Of a stretch of 64,000 nt of DNA, positions 12,173 through 49,085 are shown one piece after another. The notes under the pieces are model-generated. The model ran no database searches, was not told where the DNA came from, and saw nothing but the letters and a program-made list of their open reading frames with translations. How positions within the stretch are numbered: position 1 is the stretch's first letter; every line of letters begins with the position of its first letter. The DNA is from a virus, in the IMG/VR virus record IMGVR_UViG_3300037091_000060, positions 1 to 64,000 of that record; one strand, 5' to 3'. A program made the translations under genes and the position numbers.

Positions 12173-12436
12173 TTGAGTACTGAAAACAAAAGAGCGGACT
12201 CGTTTGCGGTCGCGAGCGAGCACTGGAAGAACATGCCGGAGTATGTCTCCGAGGACCTCACGCCGTATCGGACTTTACCCGTGCACTTCGCTACAGAGGC
12301 AGATATGTTGGCCTTCTCTGCTTTAGTTGGTCAAAAGATCACCAAGATAACGAAGAGCATCTGGTACCCAGAGGCAGAGATCGGTCGCACCGCTGATAAA
12401 AAGTATGTTGACGAAGATACGTCAGAGGGCTTTTAG
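12173..12436 (+). CDS. Small protein of the type found next to TAGT genes
   Basis: W..MPEY..VHF..F..LVGQKIT..TKSIWYP. Confidence 0.7.
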   Translation: MSTENKRADSFAVASEHWKNMPEYVSEDLTPYRTLPVHFATEADMLAFSALVGQKITKITKSIWYPEAEIGRTADKKYVDEDTSEGF

Positions 12437-13302
12437 TGAATCCTACGTACCCAGTGTACATCATATCGAAAGGCCGATGGAAGCAAAGGCACACGGTCAA
12501 GGCCTTAGAGAAGATGGGTGTGCCTCATAAATTAGTTATCGAACCGCAGGAGTTTGATGATTACGCAGCGGTTGTGAGCAGGGATAATATTTTAGTGTTG
12601 CCATTCAGCAACTTAGGACAAGGCTCCATCCCGGCGAGGAATTGGGTCTGGCAGCACGCCGTAGGTAGCGGGACAACGCGACACTGGATTTTAGACGACA
12701 ACATTGCAGGATTTTATCGGTTGAACCACAACTTAAAAGTGCGCACGTTAACTGGTTCTATTTTTCGAGCAGCAGAGGACTTCGTTGATCGATATGAGAA
12801 CGTAGCGTTGTCTGGGTTTCATTATAAAATGTTCGCGAAACGAAAAGATTATTTGCCTGCTTTTTATATGAACACCCGAATTTATTCATGCATCTTAATC
12901 AAAAATGATTTACCCTACCGCTGGCGCGGGCGTTACAACGAGGACACAGATTTATCGCTAAGAGCGCTTAAAGATGGTTGGTGTACAGTTTTGTTCGCCG
13001 CATTTTTAGCCGAGAAGTTGACAACGATGACAATGAGCGGCGGGAACACTGACGAGCTATATAAAGATGATGGTCGATTGAAGATGGCAGAGTCCCTCGT
13101 CGAGCAGCACCCTGACGTAGCGACTGTGTCTTGGAAGTTTAATCGGTACCAGCACCATGTAGATTACCGCCCCTTCGGAAAGAACGAGTTGAAACTTAAA
13201 CCCGGTGTTGTTGTGCCTGATGTTGTGAATAATTTCGGGATGAAGCTAGAAATAGACGGGAGTAAATTTTCCGAAAATGAGAAAATTATTATATCTCATT
13301 GA
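12436..13302 (+). CDS. TET-associated (GREB1-like) glycosyltransferase, putative DNA base glycosylation
   Basis: YIISKGR, ARNW, WILDDNI, IYSCILI, WRGRYNEDTDLSLR, GGNT, HHVDY. Confidence 0.8.
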   Translation: MNPTYPVYIISKGRWKQRHTVKALEKMGVPHKLVIEPQEFDDYAAVVSRDNILVLPFSNLGQGSIPARNWVWQHAVGSGTTRHWILDDNIAGFYRLNHNLKVRTLTGSIFRAAEDFVDRYENVALSGFHYKMFAKRKDYLPAFYMNTRIYSCILIKNDLPYRWRGRYNEDTDLSLRALKDGWCTVLFAAFLAEKLTTMTMSGGNTDELYKDDGRLKMAESLVEQHPDVATVSWKFNRYQHHVDYRPFGKNELKLKPGVVVPDVVNNFGMKLEIDGSKFSENEKIIISH

Positions 13303-31002: not shown

Positions 31003-32412
31003 AGATACTTGTACACCACTGCATCGCTCAAGAGGTGATCGTTTACGGGCTTATGGAGCCGTCACCCAGCATTAAGTGCCGTTGCAGAAAACGCATCTCG
31101 CTAAAACGAGCTACGGAGTTAGTGCGGGTTGGCGAAGCGAGTTGGATTACTGCGAGCCGCGTGCGCGGCGAACGAGCAACGGTCTGTAGGCTCTGCAAAG
31201 CCGATAACGCGGTCGCCAAGTGCGCTTTGTGCGGCGGCAAGGGCATGACTTTAGAGCCTTACGTGGAGGACACACCGGGCAGCGATATCTTGCTGGTTTC
31301 CAGAAATCCTCAAGACGCGAAAGAGAAGAAGTCCTTCTTTTTGAAAGCCAAAACCCCGAGAGCACCCACCATTGAAGAGGGCCACATCATGAGGGCATTA
31401 GACGACAAAGAGGCCAAAGAACGCGTTGAACAGTATGGTGAATCGATTGTGTGGAATTTGCAAGGACTCGGCGCGGAGGTCACCTATAAAGGAAAAGTTA
31501 TTATGGAAGGCCGACCTGAACCAAAGAACGACGCGAAGAAGGGCGTCGGCAGAGATTACGATTGGGGGCGTTGCATATAATGACTGACGATATCAAAGAC
31601 GTAACATTTCAACCGGACCCGTTCGTAACCACGCCGGAGTTACAAGCTGCAATTGACGCGGCCTTGGCTGCGGTTCTAACTCGCACGTACGCTGGCCGCA
31701 ATCCGCAACTCGGTAAGATGATTAACTGTCAAGTGTGCCGCTCCCGTCACCGCAAGAATGAAAGGCAGTGCGAGCAGGTCTTCACACACCGGGTAGATCA
31801 CGACAACTACGAGTTGCTACGAGAGAACGACAATGGTGAACTCGTACCGGACTACCGCACCTGCACGAAGGAAGGCGAGCGTCCCACGATGAAACAGCTT
31901 ATGGGCGCGGCGGCATTCAATAAGAAACGTTTCCACCCGCACCCATCGAAGATCAAGCTGCTGCTCATTAATTACACCCGCGAATATTTCGTAGCCCTTG
32001 GCTTTCCGTTGGAGAGAACCGAAAAGGAGATCGAGAAAAACTTTCCTACTAAAGAAGAGTTCGACAAAGAATTTCAAAAGAATTTGCAACGCTCTCGTGT
32101 CTTGGCCGCTCGTCAAATCCGCAAGGAACGTCGACTGCGCACCCGCGCAACGAACCGCCAAGCGGACAAGGCGCGACGCATCAACCGGGGGCTGTTGTGA
32201 AATACATTAAGGTAGCAGAAACTGAAACGATGATCGCTCACCGGGCGAAGCCGAAGTGGTGGATTCCGATCTACAATTTCTTTTATCGAGTTCAAAGAAA
32301 AGTTCGCGGGCTGCCGCCCGGATACACTTGCCATTTAGTTATCTGGACACCGAAGAATTGGGACGGCTACATTAAGCGACACCACGTCGATAAGGTTGAC
32401 CCCGTTGCTTGA
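30999..32412 (+). CDS. Three hypothetical proteins (30999-31580, 31580-32200, 32197-32412)
   Basis: Translationally coupled ORFs. Confidence 0.65.
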
Positions 32413-33172
32413 AAATATTACAATCCTAATCCCGACCTTCCACCGACGCGGCTACCTCCGCGACTGTTTGGATGGCATCGCCGTGAACCTACCCGAGTGC
32501 GCAATTCTGGTTGCTTCGGACGATGGTCTACTACCAGAGCGCGGGATGCTTCCGCAGGCCTGCGACAGAGATAGTTGGTTCACGCTGCCGTACGATAGCG
32601 GTCTGACTGTGAAGCGCAACATTCTTGCGCAAGGAACGCTGACGCGGTACGCGCTGATGGGTTCCGACGACTTCGACTTCTCCACATCGCAGGCGCGCGA
32701 GGGCATCATTAGGATGGCTCAACTATTCAAGGCTTCAGATTTAACTTTTATGGAGGTTGACGTCGCGTGTGGACGGGTCAACAACCGACCGTACGAGGGT
32801 CATCTTGAGTACGTTCCCGGCCAATACATTAAGGAGCACCGCATCGGGCCGCGACAAGCCTCAAGGGTAACCGGAGTCGACATCGCGGCAAACTATTTTC
32901 TCGCCCGCGCCGACTTCCTCCGAAAGTTTCCTTGGGACGAGACCATCCGGCCTATCGGTGGGGAGCACGCGGACTGGTTCCTCGACTTGAAGGCAGCTAA
33001 CAGAAAGGTCGTGTTCGTCCCCGGCGTGAACATCAACGAACTTCCGAAGGACCGCAGTAAAGAGCATCCCGACTACCGCACGTTCCGCAATCGATGCTGG
33101 GAAGGCCACGCGATCTTCATGAAAAAGCGTGGCATCAAGAAGTATTACGGATTCGATGAAGACGTACAATAG
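32396..33172 (+). CDS. GT-A fold (GT2-like) glycosyltransferase
   Basis: ILIPTFHR, VASDD, DSGL..KRN, SDDFDF, GGEHADWF. Confidence 0.8.
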   Translation: MTPLLENITILIPTFHRRGYLRDCLDGIAVNLPECAILVASDDGLLPERGMLPQACDRDSWFTLPYDSGLTVKRNILAQGTLTRYALMGSDDFDFSTSQAREGIIRMAQLFKASDLTFMEVDVACGRVNNRPYEGHLEYVPGQYIKEHRIGPRQASRVTGVDIAANYFLARADFLRKFPWDETIRPIGGEHADWFLDLKAANRKVVFVPGVNINELPKDRSKEHPDYRTFRNRCWEGHAIFMKKRGIKKYYGFDEDVQ

Positions 33173-33182
33173 GAGAACTAAA

Positions 33183-33377
33183 ATGGCAAAACACAAGGTA
33201 GCAAAGGCAATTCAAATTGGTTCGGTGGTTCAGTTCAAGAGTGGCGGGCCGCTCATGACCGTAGTCAAAGGCGTATCAGGGGGCGACAGCACCATTCTAA
33301 CGGTGTTGTGGATAGCAGAAGAACGCTATCTTCAAAAGGCCGAAGTCGCCATCCAAGCGTTCAAACTGATACGCTAA
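33183..33377 (+). CDS. DUF2158/YodC-like protein
   Basis: IGSVVQFKSGGPLMTV. Confidence 0.75.
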   Translation: MAKHKVAKAIQIGSVVQFKSGGPLMTVVKGVSGGDSTILTVLWIAEERYLQKAEVAIQAFKLIR

Positions 33378-34330
33378 TGGACCTGATAATCTACCACGGA
33401 AATTGTCCCGACGGCTGGGCCGCAGCGTACATCTGCAAGCTGAAGTACCCGGAGGCCGAGTTCATGCCCCTCAATCATGGTCTGACAGACGAGGCATTGG
33501 AAGACCTATTTGCGATGGTCGACAATAAACACGTCATCATGGTCGACTATTCGCTGCGCACTCGCGAGTTGAACGACAAGTTAGCCGCACTCGCGAACAC
33601 GTTCCGTATTCTCGACCATCACAAGACAGCGCAGGCCGTGTTGGAGGGCGCACCGTACGCGATCTTCGATATGAAACGCTCAGGCGCTGGCATGACGTGG
33701 GATTATCTGTTCGGCAAGGACGCGTATTTGGAGGGCGACGGATACTTAGAACGACCATTCTGGATTTCGTACACCGAGGACCAAGATTTGTGGAACTGGG
33801 TGTTGCCGCACTCCCAAGAGATCAACGCCTATTTGATGGTGCAACCGCGCACCGTTGAAGTGTGGGATAAAATAATTGAGATGAGTGCCGCTGATGCTGA
33901 GAAAAGAGGTAAAGGCGTCCGCTCGTACATCGAATACTACACCCGCTCCGTCCTCGCAGAGGTACAAGAGGGCGTTCTATTTTTCCAGACGGGCACAATC
34001 GAGTCAGAGGACGAGACCATCACCCTTCCCGTTTATACCAGTTACCGCACCGGGGTCCTCAACATCCCGTACGTGGGAGTCAGCGAGGCTGGCGCGGCAT
34101 TAGTCGAGAGTGGATTCGACATCGGCCTCGCGTGGTTCGAGCGCGGCGACGGTCTGATTCAGTTCTCTTTGCGTAGCAAAAAGGGCGGCCCAATCGACGT
34201 CGCCGCAATCGCAAAGACCTACGGCGGCGGCGGCCACAACAACGCGGCAGGTTTTCAAGTTAGTCTCAGAGAGGGTCGCGACATCGTCGACGGCATCATA
34301 GGGAGACTCAGTTATGAAAAATCGAATTGA
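33377..34330 (+). CDS. DHH/DHHA1 phosphoesterase (NrnB-like)
   Basis: YHGNCPDG, VDYS, LDHH, SGA, DLW, FSLRS, GGGGH..AAGF. Confidence 0.9.
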   Translation: MDLIIYHGNCPDGWAAAYICKLKYPEAEFMPLNHGLTDEALEDLFAMVDNKHVIMVDYSLRTRELNDKLAALANTFRILDHHKTAQAVLEGAPYAIFDMKRSGAGMTWDYLFGKDAYLEGDGYLERPFWISYTEDQDLWNWVLPHSQEINAYLMVQPRTVEVWDKIIEMSAADAEKRGKGVRSYIEYYTRSVLAEVQEGVLFFQTGTIESEDETITLPVYTSYRTGVLNIPYVGVSEAGAALVESGFDIGLAWFERGDGLIQFSLRSKKGGPIDVAAIAKTYGGGGHNNAAGFQVSLREGRDIVDGIIGRLSYEKSN

Positions 34331-34658
34331 CATCATAGAGTTCCCTGTCTTCTCCGACTTCATCGTCCACGTTGAAGTGACAAAGAACTTACAAAAGACT
34401 ACGATGAAGTATCCAAGTGTCGCGTGTTTGGCGGACGAGATCGATAACAACACAGACGCGGTCACGTTGTACGCTAACGGAAAGGTCTGTTTCATATTCT
34501 TACAACCCGATGCTTCTGCTGGAACAGTGGCCCACGAGGCCTTTCACGCCGTCGAGAATATGATGAGCTATTTCGATATGGACTTGGGCGGGGAGACTTC
34601 GGCGTATCACATCGGGTATATAGTGAACCGTGCATTCAAATTGTTGAGGAAACGATGA
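34314..34658 (+). CDS. Small HExxH metallopeptidase-like protein
   Basis: VAHEAFH..E..AY. Confidence 0.65.
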   Translation: MKNRIDIIEFPVFSDFIVHVEVTKNLQKTTMKYPSVACLADEIDNNTDAVTLYANGKVCFIFLQPDASAGTVAHEAFHAVENMMSYFDMDLGGETSAYHIGYIVNRAFKLLRKR

Positions 34659-35368
34659 CACTACTTATCGCAGTTAAGAGTTGCCGTGCAGACCTAGATC
34701 GCGGGTGTCATGACGTGATTCGCTCGACGTGGGGGCTAGCCTTGCGCGGTAAGGCGATGGTGCGTTTCTTCGTCGGCCACACGGCCAGCGACTACTTCAT
34801 GGCCCACCCAAAGGCCGACGCGAGAACATTCTCAAACGACGAGGTTGTGGCGGACGCACCCGACGATTATCAGTCACTGCCACATAAGACTCGCGCCATC
34901 TGCGGCTGGGCGATCACTAAGAACGTCAGCCACGTGTTCCTCTGCGACAACGACACTTATGTGAACGCGGCGAAGCTACTCTCTTGCGGGTACGAGGGCT
35001 ACGACTACGTAGGCAAGATCGACAAGCCGTTGGGAGAAACCTTCCCTTACGACGCGGTTGACCGCAATGGAATAATGGAGCACATCCCCTTCTGTTACCC
35101 GTGGGCCAGCGGCGGCATCGGCTATTTTCTGTCTCGGAACGCGGCCTTCGAGGTAGCAGACAGTTATCCGAAAACGTGGGCCGAAGATTTGTGGGTTGGT
35201 CAAGTTCTGGGACGAGAGATCGCGAAGGGAAACATGAGCGCGCGCTCTCTTCCGGCAGGCAATTACTCCCTGCATTTTCCATCTGCCCAATTTAAGCAGG
35301 GTTATGACCCAAAGTTGAATTGGATGCAAGAAATGCACGCGAAGACTACGTGGGATAATTTAGTATGA
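34655..35368 (+). CDS. GT31-like (beta-1,3-galactosyltransferase family) glycosyltransferase
   Basis: IRSTWG, FFVG, DDYQSLPHKT, CDNDTYVN, DYVG, ASGG.GY.LS, EDLWVG. Confidence 0.85.
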   Translation: MTLLIAVKSCRADLDRGCHDVIRSTWGLALRGKAMVRFFVGHTASDYFMAHPKADARTFSNDEVVADAPDDYQSLPHKTRAICGWAITKNVSHVFLCDNDTYVNAAKLLSCGYEGYDYVGKIDKPLGETFPYDAVDRNGIMEHIPFCYPWASGGIGYFLSRNAAFEVADSYPKTWAEDLWVGQVLGREIAKGNMSARSLPAGNYSLHFPSAQFKQGYDPKLNWMQEMHAKTTWDNLV

Positions 35369-35793
35369 AGACAGCATTGAAAAACAGAGAGCAGCGTTTG
35401 GGGATTTATAGACGATACTATAGACGACACCGTTTGAAACTCCTCAAAGCGCGCAAAGAGTATTATGATACAAACAGAAAGGAAATAAGAAACAGAAAAC
35501 TCGCGCGTAATTTACAAATAAAGTTTGAAGTTCTCGCGCACTATGGTCCAAGAAAAGAACTGCGCTGTTCATGGCGCGGGTGCGCAATTGTGGATGTGGA
35601 CATGCTCTCATTGGACCACGTAAAAAATGATGGTTTCAAACACCGTCATCAGCATCAACACGATGGAAGTCAGGGCGGGGTCGGTCTTTATTCTCGTTTA
35701 CGAAATATGAAATATCCAAAAGGTTTTCAAACTCTCTGCTACAATCATCAAATGAAAAAAGAGCTTGTTCGTCGTTCATCGGAGGCCTTGTGA
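35365..35793 (+). CDS. HNH-like endonuclease inserted in the GT cluster
   Basis: VLAHYG..C..C..LSLDHVKNDG..FQTLCYNH; AT-rich. Confidence 0.75.
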   Translation: MKTALKNREQRLGIYRRYYRRHRLKLLKARKEYYDTNRKEIRNRKLARNLQIKFEVLAHYGPRKELRCSWRGCAIVDVDMLSLDHVKNDGFKHRHQHQHDGSQGGVGLYSRLRNMKYPKGFQTLCYNHQMKKELVRRSSEAL

Positions 35794-36473
35794 CGTCCGT
35801 AGCATTACTAGTTATCGCAACAGGGGAGAGGTACCACAAGTATGTTCAGCCTCTGCTCGCGTCAGCGAGAACCTATTTCGTTCCTCATACGGCAGTCGTC
35901 TTCTCCGACGCCAACAACATCGGCTTGGGAGAACGTCCTTACATGGTGATCGACCACGAAGCGTGGCCCGGTCCCACGCTCCACCGATATCGTACGTTCT
36001 TGAAGGCAAAAGAATATCTAGGATGTTTCGACCAGCTATTTTATATCGACGTCGACATGCTGTTCGTCGCACCAGTTGGGGACGAGATATTCTCCCACGG
36101 TCTGACCGCCGTACTCCACCCCGGCTATGTCGGCACGTGCGGCACTCCTGAAAGACGAAGAGAGTCCGCCGCGTTCACGCCCTATAATAAGGCCTATTAT
36201 TGTGGCGGCTTTCAAGGTGGGGATACAGAAACATATTTGAGGGCGATGGAGTACATGGCTTCTGGAATTAAATTTGACGAGGCGCGAGGAATAACTGCGG
36301 CGTGGCACGACGAGTCTCACTGGAACGCTCTCTTGTCGACCATCGAAAGGCCGACGAAGGTCTTTGGACCTGAGTACTGTTACCCCGAGAACGCGGGCAG
36401 CCACTACACCGACAAATGGCGCGCGGCGGGACTGGGTCACGTTGAGCCTAAGATTTTGGCACTCACGAAATGA
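35790..36473 (+). CDS. GT6 family (ABO-type alpha-1,3-Gal/GalNAc) glycosyltransferase
   Basis: LLVIATG.RY, WP..TL.R, YIDVDM, LHPGY, ERR.ES.A, YYCGGFQGG, WHDESHWN, PEYCYPE, KILALTK. Confidence 0.9.
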   Translation: MTSVALLVIATGERYHKYVQPLLASARTYFVPHTAVVFSDANNIGLGERPYMVIDHEAWPGPTLHRYRTFLKAKEYLGCFDQLFYIDVDMLFVAPVGDEIFSHGLTAVLHPGYVGTCGTPERRRESAAFTPYNKAYYCGGFQGGDTETYLRAMEYMASGIKFDEARGITAAWHDESHWNALLSTIERPTKVFGPEYCYPENAGSHYTDKWRAAGLGHVEPKILALTK

Positions 36474-37198
36474 TTACCATTAAACTGATGGGAGGATTAG
36501 GAAATCAACTTTTCCAGCGGGCCTTCGGGCTGGCGTTAGAGGGCCGAGGCTATCAAGTTCGTTACGACCCGTTCGCGTTGAAAGAGGGCACTCACCGCGA
36601 GTACTCGCTCGGCTACTTCGGGGACTTACCAATCGGTCGTCAAGAGGGGCCGATTGTCAAGGAGGAGGGCGCGGTTTTTAACGCGGCCTATCTCAATCCG
36701 CCTGACACGTGCACGATGATCGGATACTGGCAGTCGGAGAAGTATTTTCTCCCAGTCGCGTACGAGGTTAACGAGGCATTCAGGTTTCGAGGGCCGCGTC
36801 CGCTACTGCCCGACTGTATAGCGGTTCACGTGCGCCGGGGGGACTATGTCGATTTGCAACAGTTTCACGGCATGCCTGACATTAAGTATTATACAGAGGG
36901 CGTTGAGCACATCCGTCGCCGCGTGGGGGAACCTCTTAAGGTTTTAGTGCTATCGGATGACCGCCAGTGGTGTAGGGAAAATCTCCCCTCTGATTTCACA
37001 GTCGTAGAGGGTGCGAACAAGTACGAGGACATGAAGATCATAGCTGCGTGCGGGTTCGCGGTGATCGCCAACAGCAGCTTCAGTTGGTGGGGCGCGTGGC
37101 TGGGAAGACAGCGGATAATAGTTGCACCGAAGCAGTGGTTCACAGAGCCGTCAATGGATTCTAAGGATATCGTACCGGAGCGATGGAGAACACTATGA
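36470..37198 (+). CDS. GT11 family alpha-1,2-fucosyltransferase
   Basis: GGLGNQLFQ, GYWQSEKYF, VHVRRGDY, SDD..WC, IANSSFSWWGAWL. Confidence 0.95.
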   Translation: MITIKLMGGLGNQLFQRAFGLALEGRGYQVRYDPFALKEGTHREYSLGYFGDLPIGRQEGPIVKEEGAVFNAAYLNPPDTCTMIGYWQSEKYFLPVAYEVNEAFRFRGPRPLLPDCIAVHVRRGDYVDLQQFHGMPDIKYYTEGVEHIRRRVGEPLKVLVLSDDRQWCRENLPSDFTVVEGANKYEDMKIIAACGFAVIANSSFSWWGAWLGRQRIIVAPKQWFTEPSMDSKDIVPERWRTL

Positions 37199-37608
37199 GA
37201 GTATACTTAGGCGGCACCTTCGACATCATTCATCCCGGCCACATCAAGCTGTTCCGATGGGCGAAATTTACCTTCGGTGAGGTGATAGTCGCGCTCAACA
37301 CCGACGAGTTTATCCTGCGGTATAAGGGCAAGGCCCCGGCGATGACCTTCGAGCAGCGTAAGGATGTTCTCTCGGAACTTCGCTCGGTGGACCGCGTTGT
37401 CACGAACACGGGCGACGAGGACTCAAGGCCATCGATTATCGAAGCCCGCCCGCAAGTCATCGTGGTAGGCTCCGACTGGACGAGAGATCGCATTTTGAAG
37501 CAACTGAATATCACTGAGGGATTCTTACTGCAATACAGCATCAACCTTGTGATCTACGGCAACTCTGACCCGATACACTCATCAGACATCAAGAAGAGAA
37601 TGGCATGA
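37195..37608 (+). CDS. Cytidylyltransferase (TagD/glycerol-3-phosphate cytidylyltransferase-like)
   Basis: GGTFDIIHPGH, VALNTDEF, VGSDW, HSS.IK. Confidence 0.9.
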   Translation: MRVYLGGTFDIIHPGHIKLFRWAKFTFGEVIVALNTDEFILRYKGKAPAMTFEQRKDVLSELRSVDRVVTNTGDEDSRPSIIEARPQVIVVGSDWTRDRILKQLNITEGFLLQYSINLVIYGNSDPIHSSDIKKRMA

Positions 37609-38243
37609 TAATCGAGGCGTTCATTCCGGATTGGGCAAGCCCCCGGGCGCACGCGGGGGCGTTGGCCGAGGCACTTGAGCCTTTTTGCAAGACGACTATC
37701 TTGAGTTCCTTCGACGTGCCTTTTTCAGTTCAGTGGGCGGAAGCGGTTTCTAAATTCACTGGCGACATATTTTTGTGGGCGATGGCGGACATCGAATTTC
37801 GGGACCCTGTTGAAGACATCTTTGTTTCAATGTACCGCGCCTACACACGTGGCGACATCGTGATGTACGCTCCCAATTTGGACTACACCGCGATGGTGTA
37901 TGACACGAGCAAGTTACGGCAGGTCGATCTTGGGCTGTTCGAAGTCGCGGGAACGGATTTAATCTTTGTTAGCCTGCACCGGGACCTGTTGGAATTGCTG
38001 CCCCCGCTGGGCTGCAATACCCATGCGTGGGCCTATGATTATCTGATGACGCACATCGCGCGCAGCAAACTCGGCAAGAAGGTCGTACGCGACTACAATT
38101 TCATGATCGCTCACCCGTACGGGAAAGCGTATAGTGAACCAGAAGCTATAGCGCAGCAAAACGAGTGGATACACCATCTGTCTTTTGTACACCAGATGGG
38201 CATCCGAGAACAGCAAGCGATTCAAGAGAGAACCCATGCTTAA
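37605..38243 (+). CDS. Putative divergent GT-A glycosyltransferase
   Basis: FS.QW, FLWAMADI, HAWAYDY, IAHP; position within GT cluster. Confidence 0.5.
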   Translation: MIIEAFIPDWASPRAHAGALAEALEPFCKTTILSSFDVPFSVQWAEAVSKFTGDIFLWAMADIEFRDPVEDIFVSMYRAYTRGDIVMYAPNLDYTAMVYDTSKLRQVDLGLFEVAGTDLIFVSLHRDLLELLPPLGCNTHAWAYDYLMTHIARSKLGKKVVRDYNFMIAHPYGKAYSEPEAIAQQNEWIHHLSFVHQMGIREQQAIQERTHA

Positions 38244-39018
38244 GTTATTCACTTTCGTGAGTACGAACCCCGCGCTGCTCGAACTTCAGTACAACAGCTT
38301 TCTGCGACACATGAGGGAGCCGTTCGAGTTCGTCGTTATAAACAACGGCGCGCTCACGGACCACGACAAGTACATTGAGATTGCCAAAGAGTGCATGCGC
38401 CTCCACCTTCGGTTCATAAGTGTGATGTACGACCCTATCCTCGCAGACCGACTGCGCAATTTAGGCGGCCACCGAGTGCTCGTCGGTAATATGTATGCTA
38501 ACATGACTGCGGCCTGCGGATACGGGGTCGCGTGGGCGTGGGAGAACGTGATCTCGAAACAGCGCGGCACCGTCTGTCTGATGCACCACGACATGCTGAT
38601 GGTGCGCGACGCCGTTCTGTCAGATCAGATGGAGGATGCTGACTTGGTCTTTGTCCCGCAATCCCGTGAGGGCGTGCCCGTGCACTTGTGGGAGGGGTTC
38701 GTTCTCGCCAACATCGACCGCATACCTGTGATGGATGCAGCGTGTTGGTGGTACGGTGAGATCGGTGATGTCAATGTGGACGTCGGAGGGATGTCACACT
38801 ACTGGTTTCAAGCGCACCCGCACCTGCGTTGGAAGGGAATTCCTACAGTCTCAGTCGAGGATACGCCCGACGTGAGTTTTCACCCAGCGGTATTTGAGCA
38901 TCTGTATCTCGATGGCGAACCAACAATTCTACACTACCGCGCGGCATCCGACTGGATGAAGCTGGGGCCAGAGTACCACGAAAAGAAGATGCTGTGGCTA
39001 AGGGAGCAACTGCGATGA
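38236..39018 (+). CDS. Putative glycosyltransferase
   Basis: NP.LLELQ..F, FVVINN, MHHDM, DVGG, LHYRAASDW. Confidence 0.55.
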   Translation: MLKLFTFVSTNPALLELQYNSFLRHMREPFEFVVINNGALTDHDKYIEIAKECMRLHLRFISVMYDPILADRLRNLGGHRVLVGNMYANMTAACGYGVAWAWENVISKQRGTVCLMHHDMLMVRDAVLSDQMEDADLVFVPQSREGVPVHLWEGFVLANIDRIPVMDAACWWYGEIGDVNVDVGGMSHYWFQAHPHLRWKGIPTVSVEDTPDVSFHPAVFEHLYLDGEPTILHYRAASDWMKLGPEYHEKKMLWLREQLR

Positions 39019-39875
39019 TCGCAGGAAAAGTAAACATAGTTATCCCGCTCTACAATCAAGAGCAGTACATCACTCAGTGTGTCAATTCAGCCCTCGCTCA
39101 AACGTATCCGAATTTTGACGTGACCGTTATTAATGATGGCTCAACCGACTATTCGAGACAGGTGTTACAGGAAGCGATTGACGCTTATTTGAACGTAGAC
39201 AGCGTCAAGAGGGCTGAATTTTATAAGGTGGTGGAAGAGAAAGGTCTTGAGACCAAACGAACCAGCGATAACAAATATCCGGACCACGAAGAAAAGTGGG
39301 CCTTGTGGGCGAGCTACTTTCCGAACGGTGAGCGCGTCCCGCCTCTCGTAATCGACCAACCGAATAAAGGTCTTTCTGAGTCTCGAAATATAGGGATTAG
39401 AAGCGGGGACGGGGAGTTTATTTTACCGCTTGACAGCGACGACTGGATTGATGTAGACTATCTAAGTAGGACCGTGCCCAAGATGGCGGACCCGAAGGTG
39501 GGCATCGTCTCCACCGATATGCAGTACGAGGGGCTGTTGCGCAACCGCATCGCACCGCGCGGTCTAACGTTAGCGCATCAGATGAACTGCAATGACCTTC
39601 CAATCTGCTCGCTGATTAGACGAGAGGCGTGGGAGCAAACCCCCGGGTACGAGACCATTTTCATCGAGGTAGCGGGCAGCACGAAGGTTCCCGGATACGA
39701 GGACTGGAATATGTGGATTGACATTTTGAAGCGCGGCTGGACCGTGGCGGTCGTCAACGAGCCGCTGTTCCACTACCGCGTGAAACCAGTTTCGATGATA
39801 ACGCAGGCGAAATCGAAGCACAACGGACTGGTGCGCGTGATTCATCTTCTGCATCCGGATTTGTGGAGACAATAG
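39015..39875 (+). CDS. GT2 family glycosyltransferase
   Basis: IVIPLYN, INDGSTD, NKGLSESRN, LDSDD, EDW, HYR. Confidence 0.95.
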   Translation: MIAGKVNIVIPLYNQEQYITQCVNSALAQTYPNFDVTVINDGSTDYSRQVLQEAIDAYLNVDSVKRAEFYKVVEEKGLETKRTSDNKYPDHEEKWALWASYFPNGERVPPLVIDQPNKGLSESRNIGIRSGDGEFILPLDSDDWIDVDYLSRTVPKMADPKVGIVSTDMQYEGLLRNRIAPRGLTLAHQMNCNDLPICSLIRREAWEQTPGYETIFIEVAGSTKVPGYEDWNMWIDILKRGWTVAVVNEPLFHYRVKPVSMITQAKSKHNGLVRVIHLLHPDLWRQ

Positions 39876-45823: not shown

Positions 45824-46264
45824 ATGTTGTGTGGTGAGAAATCAGTTCGCCACACATTTCCTTGCGGCTGTTCGGGAACATTATCTATTAATCGGAGTAA
45901 ATTTATCGACGTAAGAAATCATCGAGGTGGGAGAAAGTCTGCCCATTGTCGCGTGATGGCAATATTGAGTGCCTCGCAACAAAGAGCCAAAAAGTATAAA
46001 TATACTCCAGTCAATCGAGACACGCTACATTCTCTAGTTAGGAAGTTAATGAGAGTCAAAGAGTGCTGGCGTTGCAGACAACCGCTAGAGTGGGTCTTCG
46101 GTCGCGGAAAGACGCCGCACCTCCACCACGACCACGAAACCGGAGAGGTTCATGGTTTCACACACCCAAGCTGCAATCCAAAGGCGTTGCTACACGAGAT
46201 TGATGATTTGAGAAAAGAACTCGCTATTTTAAAAATTTCACTTGACAAGACTCTCCAATCATGA
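45824..46264 (+). CDS. HNH/EndoVII-like endonuclease
   Basis: CWRC..HLHHDHETGEVHGFTHPSCN; related to 17471-17995. Confidence 0.7.
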   Translation: MLCGEKSVRHTFPCGCSGTLSINRSKFIDVRNHRGGRKSAHCRVMAILSASQQRAKKYKYTPVNRDTLHSLVRKLMRVKECWRCRQPLEWVFGRGKTPHLHHDHETGEVHGFTHPSCNPKALLHEIDDLRKELAILKISLDKTLQS

Positions 46265-46270
46265 GATGCT
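46242..46270 (+). promoter_or_regulatory. Integrase promoter
   Basis: TTGACA-17-GATGCT with TG. Confidence 0.65.
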
Positions 46271-46290
46271 TTGGATACGGAGAAACGCAT

Positions 46291-47163
46291 ATGACTTTTC
46301 GAGAACAGGCTGAGAAATATATGCTTGAGATCGCTAATCGAAAGGGTGCCCCAGCGAGAGCTACCACCCTTCACGTCTATCGCTCCGTTCTCGATGCCCG
46401 CGTACTTCCCGCTATCGGCGGGGCAGATATGGCGGCCATTAACAATAAAACCGTCAAGATGCTCGTCGGTCGTCTCGCAGAGGCCCGATTGAGTCCTGCC
46501 ACCATATCCTTGACGGTCGCACTTGTGAAACAGATCGTCGCGTCCGCCACGGATGACGAGGGTACCTACCTGTACCCGGTGAAATGGAACCCCAAGTTTA
46601 TAGACGCTCCCCGGGTCGACCCAGCCTCCCAGACCACGCCTATTGCCTCGGTTGCTGCCATTACGGCTGCATTACAGACGACATCGGGCGAAGTTGGGGT
46701 ATTGGTAGCCTTATTGGCTGGAACGGGCCTACGGGTCGGGGAAGCCCTCGCCTTGAAGGCATCTGACTGGGACCGGGACGCGGGCACCCTCCGAATTCAC
46801 TCCACGATGGTCAAGGGCCAAGTCCAGCCGGACCCGAAAACGAAGGCCGGGAACCGGGTGGTCGACCTAGACCCCTCGCTGAATCGATTCCTTAGCGCGC
46901 TGCTTCCGACCGAGGGCCGCCTGTTTTCATCCCCGGAGCGCACCCTGCACTTCCGCCTTGCGAAGCTGGGCATCCACGGGTTCCACAGTTTGCGCAGATT
47001 TCGCATCACGTATTTGCAAGGCACGGCAATCCCGCCTACGCTGGTGAAGTTCTGGGCGGGTCACGCGGCGGGAGACATCACAGAGCGTTACACAAAATTC
47101 GGAGCACAAATTCAAGAGAGGAAGGTCTGGTCGGAGAAGGCCGGATTAGGGTTCTCGTTGTGA
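46291..47163 (+). CDS. int: Tyrosine recombinase/integrase
   Basis: TGLRVGE, PKT, HSLRR, GH, ITERY catalytic set. Confidence 0.92.
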   Translation: MTFREQAEKYMLEIANRKGAPARATTLHVYRSVLDARVLPAIGGADMAAINNKTVKMLVGRLAEARLSPATISLTVALVKQIVASATDDEGTYLYPVKWNPKFIDAPRVDPASQTTPIASVAAITAALQTTSGEVGVLVALLAGTGLRVGEALALKASDWDRDAGTLRIHSTMVKGQVQPDPKTKAGNRVVDLDPSLNRFLSALLPTEGRLFSSPERTLHFRLAKLGIHGFHSLRRFRITYLQGTAIPPTLVKFWAGHAAGDITERYTKFGAQIQERKVWSEKAGLGFSL

Positions 47164-47239: not shown

Positions 47240-48085
47240 ATGACCAATTCACACATTAAGATAATTTTGTTTGGCGTGGTGCTGTTCATTATGTCCACGA
47301 TACTGACGGTCGATTTAATAAACCGCCAGTGCCACGGTCAGTGCTTTCAGAAACATGACAAGGGTTGCCAAGCGCGCTGCTTCGACCGGGGTGTGTGCCC
47401 GATGTCCGGGGGAGACCAGTAGTGCCCGGTAAGGACATCCCGGCAATCGAGTGGAAGACCCTCTTGGACGCCGACCACGTCGCGCATGTCGGCCCCGCAC
47501 TAGACGGAAGAATGATGTCGGGGCATAAACTAACTCTGGCCTGCGCTTGCTGCCCGAAGGTAGACCGGACACGCTACGCCTTAATCGTTGTACACAACGT
47601 AATTCACTGAGAGGGAATATGAGAGCAGAAGTAAAGAAGATAGGCGAGAAGGAATTCGAAGTTGTGCTGGGGAACCACGTGATCGGGACCGCGAAGTCGG
47701 ACTGCGACGCGCGCTTCCACATGCACGCTATCAACAGAGAGATTGACGCGCTAACCGAGAGGCATGATTGGAAGGGACAGGCTGACGGGTATCACGGCGG
47801 CGAATCTGAAAGTGAAAAGTTCCAAGACGAGTTAGAACCTCTCCCATGAAATGTATCACAGTGAAGGGTGAACAGTTCCGGCACCAGTTCTTATACACGG
47901 GTGTCGGCGATGAGCGTCGGTGCCACTTCTGTCAGTTGACCGTGCTGACATCGAGTGATGAAGTGATGGAAGAGACCTACCCCGGGCAGACGTACTTCCA
48001 TGAACACAACCCGAACATCAAACGCGCGGAACAGGATTATAAGGCTCAAAATCCTCGGCGTACTGATCTCGGTTCGAAGTCGTAG
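47240..48085 (+). CDS. Small hypothetical ORFs (47240-47422, 47422-47610, 47619-47849, 47846-48085)
   Basis: SD/coupled starts; first has TM plus Cys-rich tail. Confidence 0.55.
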
Positions 48086-48794
48086 CCATAATCTCCCTCG
48101 CGCGCTGTATCCTCGTTCCTAAATCCAGCCCGTAATTTTTGTAAATATCCAAACTGTCATAAGCCCGAAAACCGATGTGCGCGCAAACCGGAGCCTTCGG
48201 GTACGCGGGCAGCCAGTCGTTCTGGCGCATCACATTGCGAACGAGACCATCATCAAGTTGGGTGATTTCGTGCCATGCCCCGAACGTACGGTCTAGATAT
48301 CCACGCATGTCTTGAAAGTAGGCGTCGCAAATATGGGGAATAAGCCTGTCCAAGAGCGGACGACGCAAGAGGCTACCCGGGTTGGTGTAAAGGTGGCGGA
48401 ACTTCCAACGGCCATCGTGGTGATACCGACCGCAACTGGCGACCGCCGTCTGGCTCTCATGCCACTGAAAATAGTACGGGTAGATTAGAACATCCTCCTC
48501 GATGAGGTAGACGTTCTCCGCGCACTTCGCGGCGTTCTTAATCGCGTGCAAGATGTTCCAACTGCCGGAGGGGGCCTTCGCGTGAGGACGGGCACGAAAT
48601 AAAATAGCCTCCGGAAGGTAGAGATCGCGAACGATCTTCATCTCACGGAGGCGAGAATCTGATACCGAGTCGGCGTAGATGTGAACCGCTGGCCTACCTG
48701 CCGCGCTTGCGAGTTTTTCCAGTGTAAGCGCGAGCAGTTCCGGACGGTTTGCTGCCGGAATTGCCACCACTTGCGTTGTTAAGTTTTGGCCCAC
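48018..48794 (-). CDS. GT-A fold glycosyltransferase (start probably GTG 48794)
   Basis: VVAIPAANRPELL..L, YLIEEDV, LDDG, CAHIGF. Confidence 0.6.
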   Translation of the reverse strand: MGQNLTTQVVAIPAANRPELLALTLEKLASAAGRPAVHIYADSVSDSRLREMKIVRDLYLPEAILFRARPHAKAPSGSWNILHAIKNAAKCAENVYLIEEDVLIYPYYFQWHESQTAVASCGRYHHDGRWKFRHLYTNPGSLLRRPLLDRLIPHICDAYFQDMRGYLDRTFGAWHEITQLDDGLVRNVMRQNDWLPAYPKAPVCAHIGFRAYDSLDIYKNYGLDLGTRIQRAREIMATTSNRDQYAEDFEPYNPVPRV

Positions 48795-49085
48795 TGTCTT
48801 CTCCAAACGCCGCGTCCCACTTCTCTTGCGAAACGTTGTTGACCCCCCACGTGGCCTTGATCGCGCCTCGTGCGAGTTTGTCTCCACTTCCGATATCACC
48901 TAGTGACATTGTTATTCTCCTTTATAATCCGGATGCTGCAATTCTTTTGGAATGTCCGCCTCAAGTTCTGCGGGCAGAGGCTTATTGGGGTCCGCTCCCG
49001 GCCAATTGGTCCGGACGTAGTTCTCCCGCGTTACCGGGGTGCCCTTCTTTTTCAAGTAGTCCAGAACGTAATCCATAAGTCTCAT
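48694..49085 (-). CDS. Two small hypothetical proteins (48912-49085, 48694-48909)
   Basis: MRLMDYVLDYLKKKGTPVTRENY.. directly after promoter; second has GGAG SD. Confidence 0.55.

Follow-up and report, generated by a model that had tools for sequence, protein, structure and literature searches.

The cyanophage P-SSM2 carries genes of the glycosyltransferase families GT11 and GT6 among 24 'LPS' (lipopolysaccharide) genes (Sullivan et al. 2005, PMC1079782), and for S-SCSM2R 13 glycosyltransferases (GTs) and a TagD have been reported (PMC12801897). The P-SSM2 GT6 and PaGT6 of Parachlamydia acanthamoebae typify a minimal clade of prokaryotic GT6 enzymes with a DxD motif (PMC3516806). PaGT6 transfers N-acetylgalactosamine (GalNAc), working with Mn or Mg (Thiyagarajan et al. 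2012, PMC3516806), to the H trisaccharide and to 2'-fucosyllactose, and is inactive on N-acetyllactosamine (PMC3516806, section 8). Glycosyltransferases that modify phage capsids and tail tubes have also been described (Freeman et al. 2023, as cited in PMC10877033). This study focused on a glycan island of seven GT genes and one cytidylyltransferase gene in a phage of a soil/peat lineage. The window, that is, the whole stretch analysed, was the first 64 kb (64,000 nucleotides) of IMG/VR record IMGVR_UViG_3300037091_000060, a phage genome of 100,420 bp that is about 99% complete. The island genes resemble those used for blood-group-like glycans, and the GT11 and GT6 enzymes are most likely to modify a beta-galactoside one after the other.

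In its general pattern the island is of a kind already published. Like the cluster of P-SSM2, it is a co-directional set of soluble GTs with GT11, GT6 and GT2 and without export genes, its GT6 falls with that of P-SSM2 in the minimal DxD clade, at an identity of about 33%, and its TagD-type cytidylyltransferase has a counterpart in S-SCSM2R. The sequence-only reading of this DNA had considered a line of seven GTs unusual, which was not supported, given the 24-gene cluster of P-SSM2 and the 13 GTs of S-SCSM2R. The co-directional P-SSM2 cluster (GDP-mannose dehydratase, epimerases, GT2, GT1, GT11, GT6 and GT25) does, however, bring its own GDP-mannose dehydratase and epimerases as well as GT1 and GT25, whereas the window phage has no sugar-nucleotide enzyme and possesses instead a GT31, a B4GALNT1-like protein (A, the first island gene), and a cytidylyltransferase paired with a GT-A fold protein (C). 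The two phages are unrelated, that of the window belonging to a 100-kb lineage in which GT6, GT11 and GT2 are present or absent among close relatives. Differences of this sort, in composition, sugar-nucleotide genes, lineage and the presence or absence of the cap, are usual among glycan islands. What is new here is the relation of A to B4GALNT1, the pair of cytidylyltransferase and C, the joint loss of the cap genes in two relatives, and a ninth GT gene that closes the tail operon.

Other described systems share parts of the arrangement. Escherichia coli O86 (WbnH/J/K/I) and Bacteroides ovatus (BoGT6a) likewise combine a GT11, a GT6 and a beta-galactosyltransferase to give first H and then an A/B-like epitope, but they have wzx, wzy, initiating transferases and a metal-independent NxN type of GT6 with a membrane-binding tail, none of which is found here. 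The GT12-like, GT31, GT11 and GT6 families that occur together in this operon are those of human B4GALNT1, B3GALT4, FUT1/2 and GTA/GTB, and the phage GT6 shares with GTA and GTB the DxD and WHDES motifs, the His, Thr, Tyr and Trp acceptor residues and an x-x-P-K C-terminus; the phage proteins differ in being soluble, without stem or anchor, in the low identity of the GT6, and in that A does not keep K284. With the glycosylation systems of mycobacteriophages (Freeman et al. 2023, as cited in PMC10877033) and chloroviruses the phage has in common soluble, cytoplasmic virus GTs that use no host secretory or export machinery, and a GT gene attached to the structural module, in this case the tail-operon GT. 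Here, however, the main island lies outside the structural module, and the GT families differ.

The GT6 protein of 227 amino acids (PF03414, 88.1 bits against a cut-off of 25) has no hydrophobic segment and neither stem nor BHB tail, and shows the motifs DVD (residues 87-89), YYCGG (136-140) and WHDES (172-176). Its matches to GT6 chains in the PDB ranged from 7e-22 to 1e-17, those to BoGT6a and human GTA/GTB lying near 1e-21, with BoGT6a the best (7e-22) and the human enzymes reaching about 5e-21 at best. Both D87-V-D89 and W172-H-D-E175 were invariant in 19 phage GT6 sequences, as were most positions of the pocket. It resembles PaGT6 as a minimal catalytic domain of about 230 residues that has DxD but no stem or BHB tail and carries the same acceptor and catalytic residues, and differs in being about 36-40% identical to the Chlamydiota enzymes and in having Cys138 at the donor-determining position. 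Since the protein falls within the published minimal DxD clade, DVD is the rule for phage GT6 enzymes and no peculiarity: DVD and YYCGG had been read correctly from the sequence, but DVD, then taken as special, is what defines the phage/Parachlamydia clade. In a FastTree phylogeny eight GT6 sequences of the lineage clustered together (support 89), next to enzymes of Planctomycetota, Verrucomicrobiota and Actinomycetota, a placement too weak for a host call.

Residues of the GT6 pocket were read from a HMMER alignment to BoGT6a, with their roles taken from PMC3516806. His110, at site A1, corresponds to His122 of BoGT6a (Gln in alpha-1,3-galactosyltransferase, alpha3GalT) and Gly112, at site A2, to Gly124 (Trp in alpha3GalT), while Thr119, Tyr136, Trp172 and Glu175 are also kept. 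Near the C-terminus, where the alignment was made by eye only, a small residue, Val218, stands three before Lys221 (V218-E-P-K221). The human GTA counterpart of V-E-P-K is A-V-P-K. At position A7 an Ala is found in GTA and GTB, and BoGT6a has Ile228 and Lys231 (PMC3516806). As predicted from these residues, the acceptor pocket is of the type that requires a 2'-fucosylated galactose, not of the alpha3GalT type. On the donor side, Cys138 occupies the position of human residue 266, which is Leu in the A enzyme, Met in the B enzyme and Ala in BoGT6a, and Gly140, at human position 268, would leave room for an N-acetyl group.

The partnership with GT11 is a recurrent one. A GT11 gene was found within 5 kb of GT6 at 60 of 98 loci from many phyla (10 of 18 viral loci and 50 of 80 from prokaryote genomes, mostly bacterial), counts that are lower bounds, as many loci are truncated. 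The GT11 protein of the window (PF01531, 90.8 bits against 23.9) has the sequences GGLGNQLFQ (8-16) and HVRRGDY (120-126); an HxRRGD motif, for GDP-fucose, and an N-terminal GGLGNQ motif define the family. Together, the fucose-type pocket, the activity of PaGT6 and the linkage of the two genes support sequential action, with GT11 before GT6. The route from H to A/B that had been proposed for this operon is thus favoured by the pocket residues, PaGT6, the linkage at 60 of 98 loci and the joint loss of the genes described below, but the parts of the proposal that made the assembly unusual, DVD special or a DNA sugar a possible acceptor were not supported.

Relatives of the phage revealed how variable the island is. 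One of them, a complete genome of 101 kb with terminal repeats (G001), is syntenic at an amino-acid identity of about 70%. Other relatives came from IMG/VR (G002, L181, L184, L185) and soil metagenomes (L121, L123, L125), and two are contigs filed under 'uncultured archaeon isolate LFW-28' (L031, CABMCB010000059.1, 99,937 bp; L032, CABMCB010000010.1, 57,674 bp), which are clearly mis-binned phage, with the helicase, nuclease, island and lysis genes in common. At least 10 relatives have the island, and almost all of them carry A, GT31, GT6, GT11 and GT2, the exception being L031, in which no A and no GT2 could be found. A is the first gene and GT31 adjoins GT6 in nearly all; the order of GT11 and GT2 varies. 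In two further close relatives, L182 (98,515 bp) and L183 (82,715 bp), with 74-76% identity in the neighbouring nuclease, GT6, GT11 and GT2 are jointly missing while a GT31-like gene is retained, in L183 together with A. This joint loss suggests that A and GT31 make up an inner module, and that GT2, GT11 and GT6 form a cap module which can be dispensed with and is acquired or lost in one piece. Neither megablast of the island, run on 50,697 phage records, nor tblastn of a primase/helicase-like protein of 681 amino acids returned a match, so the lineage has no named close relative.

A third part of the island also varies. Of the 7 metagenome loci that hold C, 6 have the cytidylyltransferase gene immediately upstream of it, an adjacency that marks the two as a functional pair, and the GT-A gene that follows (D) is optional. 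C probably uses, or acts after, a CDP-activated product. G001 has neither the cytidylyltransferase nor C, but instead an FnlA/PseB-like (Polysacc_synt_2) dehydratase, an RmlD-like reductase and a further short-chain dehydrogenase/reductase (SDR) gene (L002, 7143-9977), and it has three PF01370 genes; this SDR set hints at a different, rarer sugar.

Pfam calls were judged against the curated cut-offs, and five island genes were above them. The GT31 match (PF01762, 42.6 bits against 23) covers only profile positions 4-104 of 195, and its DxD is DND at 98-100; sequence searches of the PDB with GT31 and GT11 gave no match. GT2 (PF00535, 93.8 bits) has DSDD at 147-150, and an insertion of about 70 residues splits its Pfam match between the nucleotide-binding start and this motif. 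A itself has no Pfam match; it belongs to a family of more than 226 homologues, PF00535 being matched by many of them, and a profile of 36 family members matched human B4GALNT1 (GT12, the GM2/GA2 synthase; 9h6j) at 3.7e-21 over positions 6-191 (the N-terminal 186 residues), the best GT2 structures reaching only 6e-6. By profile comparison, human B4GALNT1 is thus the nearest solved relative of A, a detail that is new here. The motifs of A are DDFDF (91-95) and an invariant GGEH (188-191); the equivalent of B4GALNT1 R288 and the DDD region align. Residues specific to UDP-GalNAc use in GT12 are K284, N437, R457, Y501 and R505 (PMC12217166). Because K284 is not kept in A and the other four fall beyond the aligned part, A was filed as GT12-like and not as a member of GT12.

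C and D are predicted by AlphaFold2 models, with high confidence, to fold as GT-A glycosyltransferases. The best PDB fold matches of C (Foldseek) were A197 of STIV, a viral glycosyltransferase, then ppGalNAc-Ts, B4GALNT1 and TarP; TM-scores of 0.86-0.88 to uncharacterised phage proteins were obtained in BFVD, and one distant relative only was found in IMG/VR. The fold of D gave Z scores of 13.8 to the GT8 (xylosyltransferase) domain of LARGE1, 12.5 to UGGT and 12.2 to GnT-I; none of its 29 homologues has a Pfam match, and comparison of the D-family profile with PDB sequences produced chance-level matches only. The subfamily of D conserves M-H-H-D-M-F, and a sister subfamily that includes G001 has the canonical metal motif D-S-D. 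With the five Pfam matches, the A family and the folds of C and D, the seven GTs and the cytidylyltransferase previously listed were all recovered, at the stated coordinates on the plus strand. This includes the upstream gene described as GT2-like, which is A, vindicated by its PF00535 homologues and B4GALNT1 profile match, and the two described as divergent, C and D, which have no Pfam match yet take on GT-A folds.

All enzymes of the island appear to work in the cytoplasm. The maximum Kyte-Doolittle mean over 19 residues was 1.3 or less for every island protein, as the claim of uniform solubility had implied, and open reading frames (ORFs) with at least four membrane-like segments were absent from this genome, its relatives and 18 other viral GT6 loci. 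The genome gave no match to PF01370 (epimerase/dehydratase) or PF00483 (nucleotidyltransferase), profiles for which all control genomes gave matches, so that GDP-fucose and UDP-sugars must be host-derived. These scans agree with the earlier statement that flippase, polymerase and sugar-nucleotide genes are lacking, although the cytidylyltransferase is itself donor-activating. It is the only donor-making enzyme of the island, a small protein (PF01467, 67.9 bits; HPGH at 17-20) whose PDB matches were, in order, TagD (1coz, 4.6e-15), the Fom1 CyTase domain, and ethanolamine- and choline-phosphate cytidylyltransferases. Its NCBIfam scores lay under the equivalog cut-offs (TIGR01518, 66.5 against 165.4; rfaE domain II, 70.8 against 181.5), and the predicted product is a CDP-activated phospho-alcohol such as glycerol, ethanolamine, choline or similar.

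The further GT that closes the tail operon lies behind a lectin-like (ConA-like/Laminin_G_3) tail protein, and keeps this final place in all relatives seen, even where the adjoining fibre genes differ. In a family of 60 members, 31 match PF13641 (the window copy at 4.8e-4) and the consensus has an LVEDDV motif, by which the family is assigned to GT-A; atlas features gave values of 0.95-0.98 to phage clusters of GNT-I, MGAT2 and GT2. A three-sequence profile had no PDB match, and hhalign against the A family aligned 39 N-terminal columns at a probability of 6.5%. The family is widespread in phages, with distant homologues amid GT1, GT2, FkbM-type methyltransferase and virion morphogenesis genes, a setting that reportedly resembles published mycobacteriophage glycosylation cassettes.

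From these data we propose that the island is a strain-variable and purely cytoplasmic glycan-assembly line of three modules. In the inner module, A, probably a beta-N-acetylhexosamine (HexNAc) transferase, and GT31, probably a beta-1,3-galactosyltransferase, would lay down a galactose (Gal)-beta-HexNAc base. The cap module (GT2, GT11, GT6) would complete the chain: GT11 would draw on GDP-fucose of the host to attach alpha-1,2-fucose, after which GT6 would attach alpha-1,3-GalNAc (or Gal). The outcome would be a blood-group-A/B-like end, similar to a fucosylated chain of the ganglio series. In the accessory module the cytidylyltransferase would make the CDP-activated phospho-alcohol, probably used by C, and D may add a further alpha-linked sugar. 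Taken by the stereotypes of their families, the conserved genes would mirror the ganglio-series route of beta-1,4-GalNAc, beta-1,3-Gal, alpha-1,2-fucose and alpha-1,3-GalNAc/Gal; the families, the folds, the catalytic and pocket residues, the gene linkage, the lack of export genes and the independence from the TET-associated glycosyltransferase (TAGT) discussed below are observations, and donors, order of action and product are inferred. The acceptor would be the virion proteins of the phage itself, primed by the tail-operon GT, which is favoured by the position of that gene, the contexts of its homologues, the location of the island beside the lysis genes and the precedent of capsid and tail-tube glycosylation.

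Our confidence differs between the parts of this proposal. The enzymology is probably right, and for an A/B-like cap the chances are about even. Virion proteins are the acceptor ranked first, but as a tentative choice, with the balance somewhat against it, and this is the weakest step of the explanation. In its full form the proposal is that tail or capsid carries a fucosylated, A/B-like oligosaccharide of ganglio-series type, built in the cytoplasm by GTs of animal type (GT12-like, GT31, GT11 and GT6), primed by the tail GT and sometimes bearing a CDP-derived phospho-alcohol, and that gain and loss of the cap amounts to antigenic variation of the virion. That all of this should be correct together is rather doubtful.

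The same enzymes and glycan could serve a different acceptor, a host lipid-linked envelope precursor such as lipid A-core or lipo-oligosaccharide (LOS), an undecaprenyl-diphosphate O-unit or a capsule unit. Extension would then occur at the inner face of the membrane, with export by the host's MsbA, Wzx or ABC systems, and the surface change during infection or lysogeny would bring superinfection exclusion or shield progeny from debris. This, the way in which the P-SSM2 cluster has classically been interpreted (PMC1079782), we consider a serious possibility, though on the unlikely side. Extension of core or LOS needs only soluble or peripheral GTs, the island varies in content in a way reminiscent of O-antigens, a tyrosine integrase is kept in the relatives, and bacterial GT6 and GT11 genes belong to surface-polysaccharide loci, of which 8 of 16 on long contigs carry multi-pass membrane proteins, which implies that their natural acceptors are lipid-linked. 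TarP, one of the fold matches of C, is moreover a soluble GT acting on wall teichoic acid (TarP-3RboP complexes), and it is prophage-encoded. Against this, the phage has no initiating transferase, flippase, ligase or polymerase, its GT6 clade is without the membrane-binding BHB tail of bacterial GT6 enzymes (PMC3516806), the genome looks lytic, and the 80 GT6 loci from prokaryote genomes included no prophage copy, only two mis-binned phage contigs. An envelope acceptor would also leave the tail-operon GT unexplained.

A blood-group-like product is itself open to challenge, since family membership leaves room for other specificities: the GTs may be a collection that uses other donors or acceptors (e.g. 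glucose or another 6-deoxyhexose) or makes several short, separate modifications. Among the signs of this are Cys at GT6 position 138, unlike A, B and BoGT6a, the HHD that replaces DSD in the D subfamily, the FnlA/PseB-like and RmlD-like genes of G001, which point to unusual sugars, the differing gene order among relatives, and the name of the nearest NCBIfam model for this GT6, 'family 6 glucosyltransferase', which the protein matches at 127 bits, short of the cut-off of 250. We nevertheless think it improbable, because no fucose-type acceptor residue is missing from the GT6, the linkage of GT11 with GT6 is strong across phyla, GT6, GT11 and GT2 are lost jointly, and the A-synthase activity of PaGT6, of the same clade, has been published. 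Far less probable again is a reading that follows the suggestion, made from the sequence, of an extended TAGT sugar on DNA: the island would lengthen the sugar that the TAGT places on hydroxymethylated bases, and the phage DNA, hypermodified with an oligosaccharide, would be protected from restriction. A true TAGT is encoded in the window, all the enzymes are cytoplasmic, and di- and tri-saccharide DNA modifications do exist in T-even-type phages. However, of four records searched this genome alone has a TAGT, which G001, G002 and G003, all with the island, lack. The complete genome G001, G002 and the two LFW-28 contigs have the island but neither the TAGT nor its two partner genes, and that relatives hold the island without a TAGT argues against a link to the DNA sugar. 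In addition, 19 kb separate the island from the TAGT, GT6, GT11, GT31 and GT12-like enzymes are known on glycan acceptors only, and no hydroxymethylase or TET was recognised.

Some of these facts tell equally against an A/B-like glycan on the virion, namely the glucosyltransferase name of the nearest GT6 model and the multi-pass proteins at bacterial GT6 loci, and others must be set beside them. GT31, GT2 and GT-A folds do not fix the sugar transferred, donor supply is wholly host-dependent, and the island is dispensable in part. On the virion side, the tail-operon GT is tied to the island by position only, and Ser/Thr-rich stretches are so frequent in tail proteins as to be uninformative. One such stretch, mucin-like, S/T/P-rich and with 47% Ser+Thr, occupies residues 878-917 of a tail protein of 1437 amino acids (genome 63557-67870, minus strand) at the end of the window; it is a conceivable O-glycosylation site, but linkers of this kind are common.

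If virion glycosylation as proposed proves true, phage particles outside the actinobacteriophages would for the first time be shown to bear a complex, branched glycan of ABH-like type. A product that is a true A/B/H-like epitope would add phages to the environmental sources of such antigens and bear on the debate over the origin of vertebrate GT6. Large ocean and soil phages repeatedly carry GT sets of blood-group type, and the present lineage offers a clean comparative system, with at least 10 island genomes, two cap-less relatives, a constant pair of cytidylyltransferase and GT, and the tail-operon GT. The small soluble enzymes could also serve glycan synthesis.

The coordinates of the island and of the other features discussed are given in the table.

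Table. Genes of the glycan island and two glycosyltransferase genes outside it (positions are those of the window)
Feature	Position	Strand	Basis
A: GT-A glycosyltransferase, GT2/GT12-like, candidate beta-HexNAc transferase; first island gene	32396..33172	+	family profile
Small DUF2158 ORF; glycan role not evident	33129..33377	+	PF09926 4.6e-7
DHH/DHHA1 phosphoesterase (RecJ/NrnA-like)	33308..34330	+	PF02272 1.2e-5, phrog_4771 1.5e-65
114-aa ORF, zincin-like HEAFH at residues 74-78	34314..34658	+	phrog_1365 7e-9
GT31-family glycosyltransferase, candidate beta-1,3-Gal/HexNAc transferase	34655..35368	+	PF01762 7.3e-11
142-aa Cys/His-rich ORF between GT31 and GT6, possibly HNH-type homing endonuclease	35365..35793	+	Cys/His motifs
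GT6, minimal DxD (phage/Parachlamydia) clade; predicted retaining alpha-1,3-GalNAc/Gal transferase on Fuc-alpha-1,2-Gal	35790..36473	+	PF03414 6e-25
GT11, alpha-1,2-fucosyltransferase-type	36470..37198	+	PF01531 1.3e-25, phrog_2644 6e-44
Small TagD/ECT/CCT-type cytidylyltransferase	37183..37608	+	PF01467 1.3e-18
C: GT-A fold protein, phage-specific family	37605..38243	+	AF2 (AlphaFold2) pLDDT 94.6
D: GT-A fold glycosyltransferase, nearest retaining GT8/GT24	38185..39018	+	AF2 pLDDT 93.4
GT2 glycosyltransferase; inverting, beta-linkage expected	38994..39875	+	PF00535 1.4e-26, two stretches
Separate GT-A glycosyltransferase, last gene of tail operon	48018..48899	-	60-member family scan
TAGT (TET-associated glycosyltransferase), outside island	12436..13302	+	PF20691 2.4e-44

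The island genes overlap or are tightly packed, and are flanked by a replication/recombination block (helicase, AAA ATPase, EndoVII-type nuclease and PD-(D/E)XK nuclease) and by lysis genes (two Metallophos genes and a GH108 endolysin), the latter directly downstream and in the same direction. The database gene call for A begins three codons later than 32396, and the ATG at 38236 is the likely start of D. A scan of 27-45 kb for promoters and terminators returned counts equal to those of shuffled sequence, and so gave no information on timing.

Several ORFs within the range of the island are probably passengers, namely the DHH, DUF2158 and 114-aa HExxH ORFs. The DHH gene interrupts the island in some relatives, has no counterpart at the corresponding place in G001, and probably lies outside the glycan pathway. 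A homologue of the DUF2158 ORF precedes A in locus L002, and the 114-aa ORF between the DHH gene and GT31 recurs in L123. The ORF of 142 amino acids had been labelled HNH, which could not be confirmed, as no Pfam, PHROG, NCBIfam or PDB match was found and only Cys/His motifs are seen; it is weakly similar to another ORF of the genome and is not found at the corresponding place in relatives, where GT31 and GT6 abut. ORFs of selfish-nuclease type occur at differing positions of the island, with GIY-YIG and NUMOD3 domains in L003 (9391-9906) and an EndoVII-like protein in L123 (near 6100). The tyrosine integrase/recombinase (46261-47163, plus strand) is kept in all relatives compared, in a genome that otherwise looks lytic, with its own polymerase and many tRNAs.

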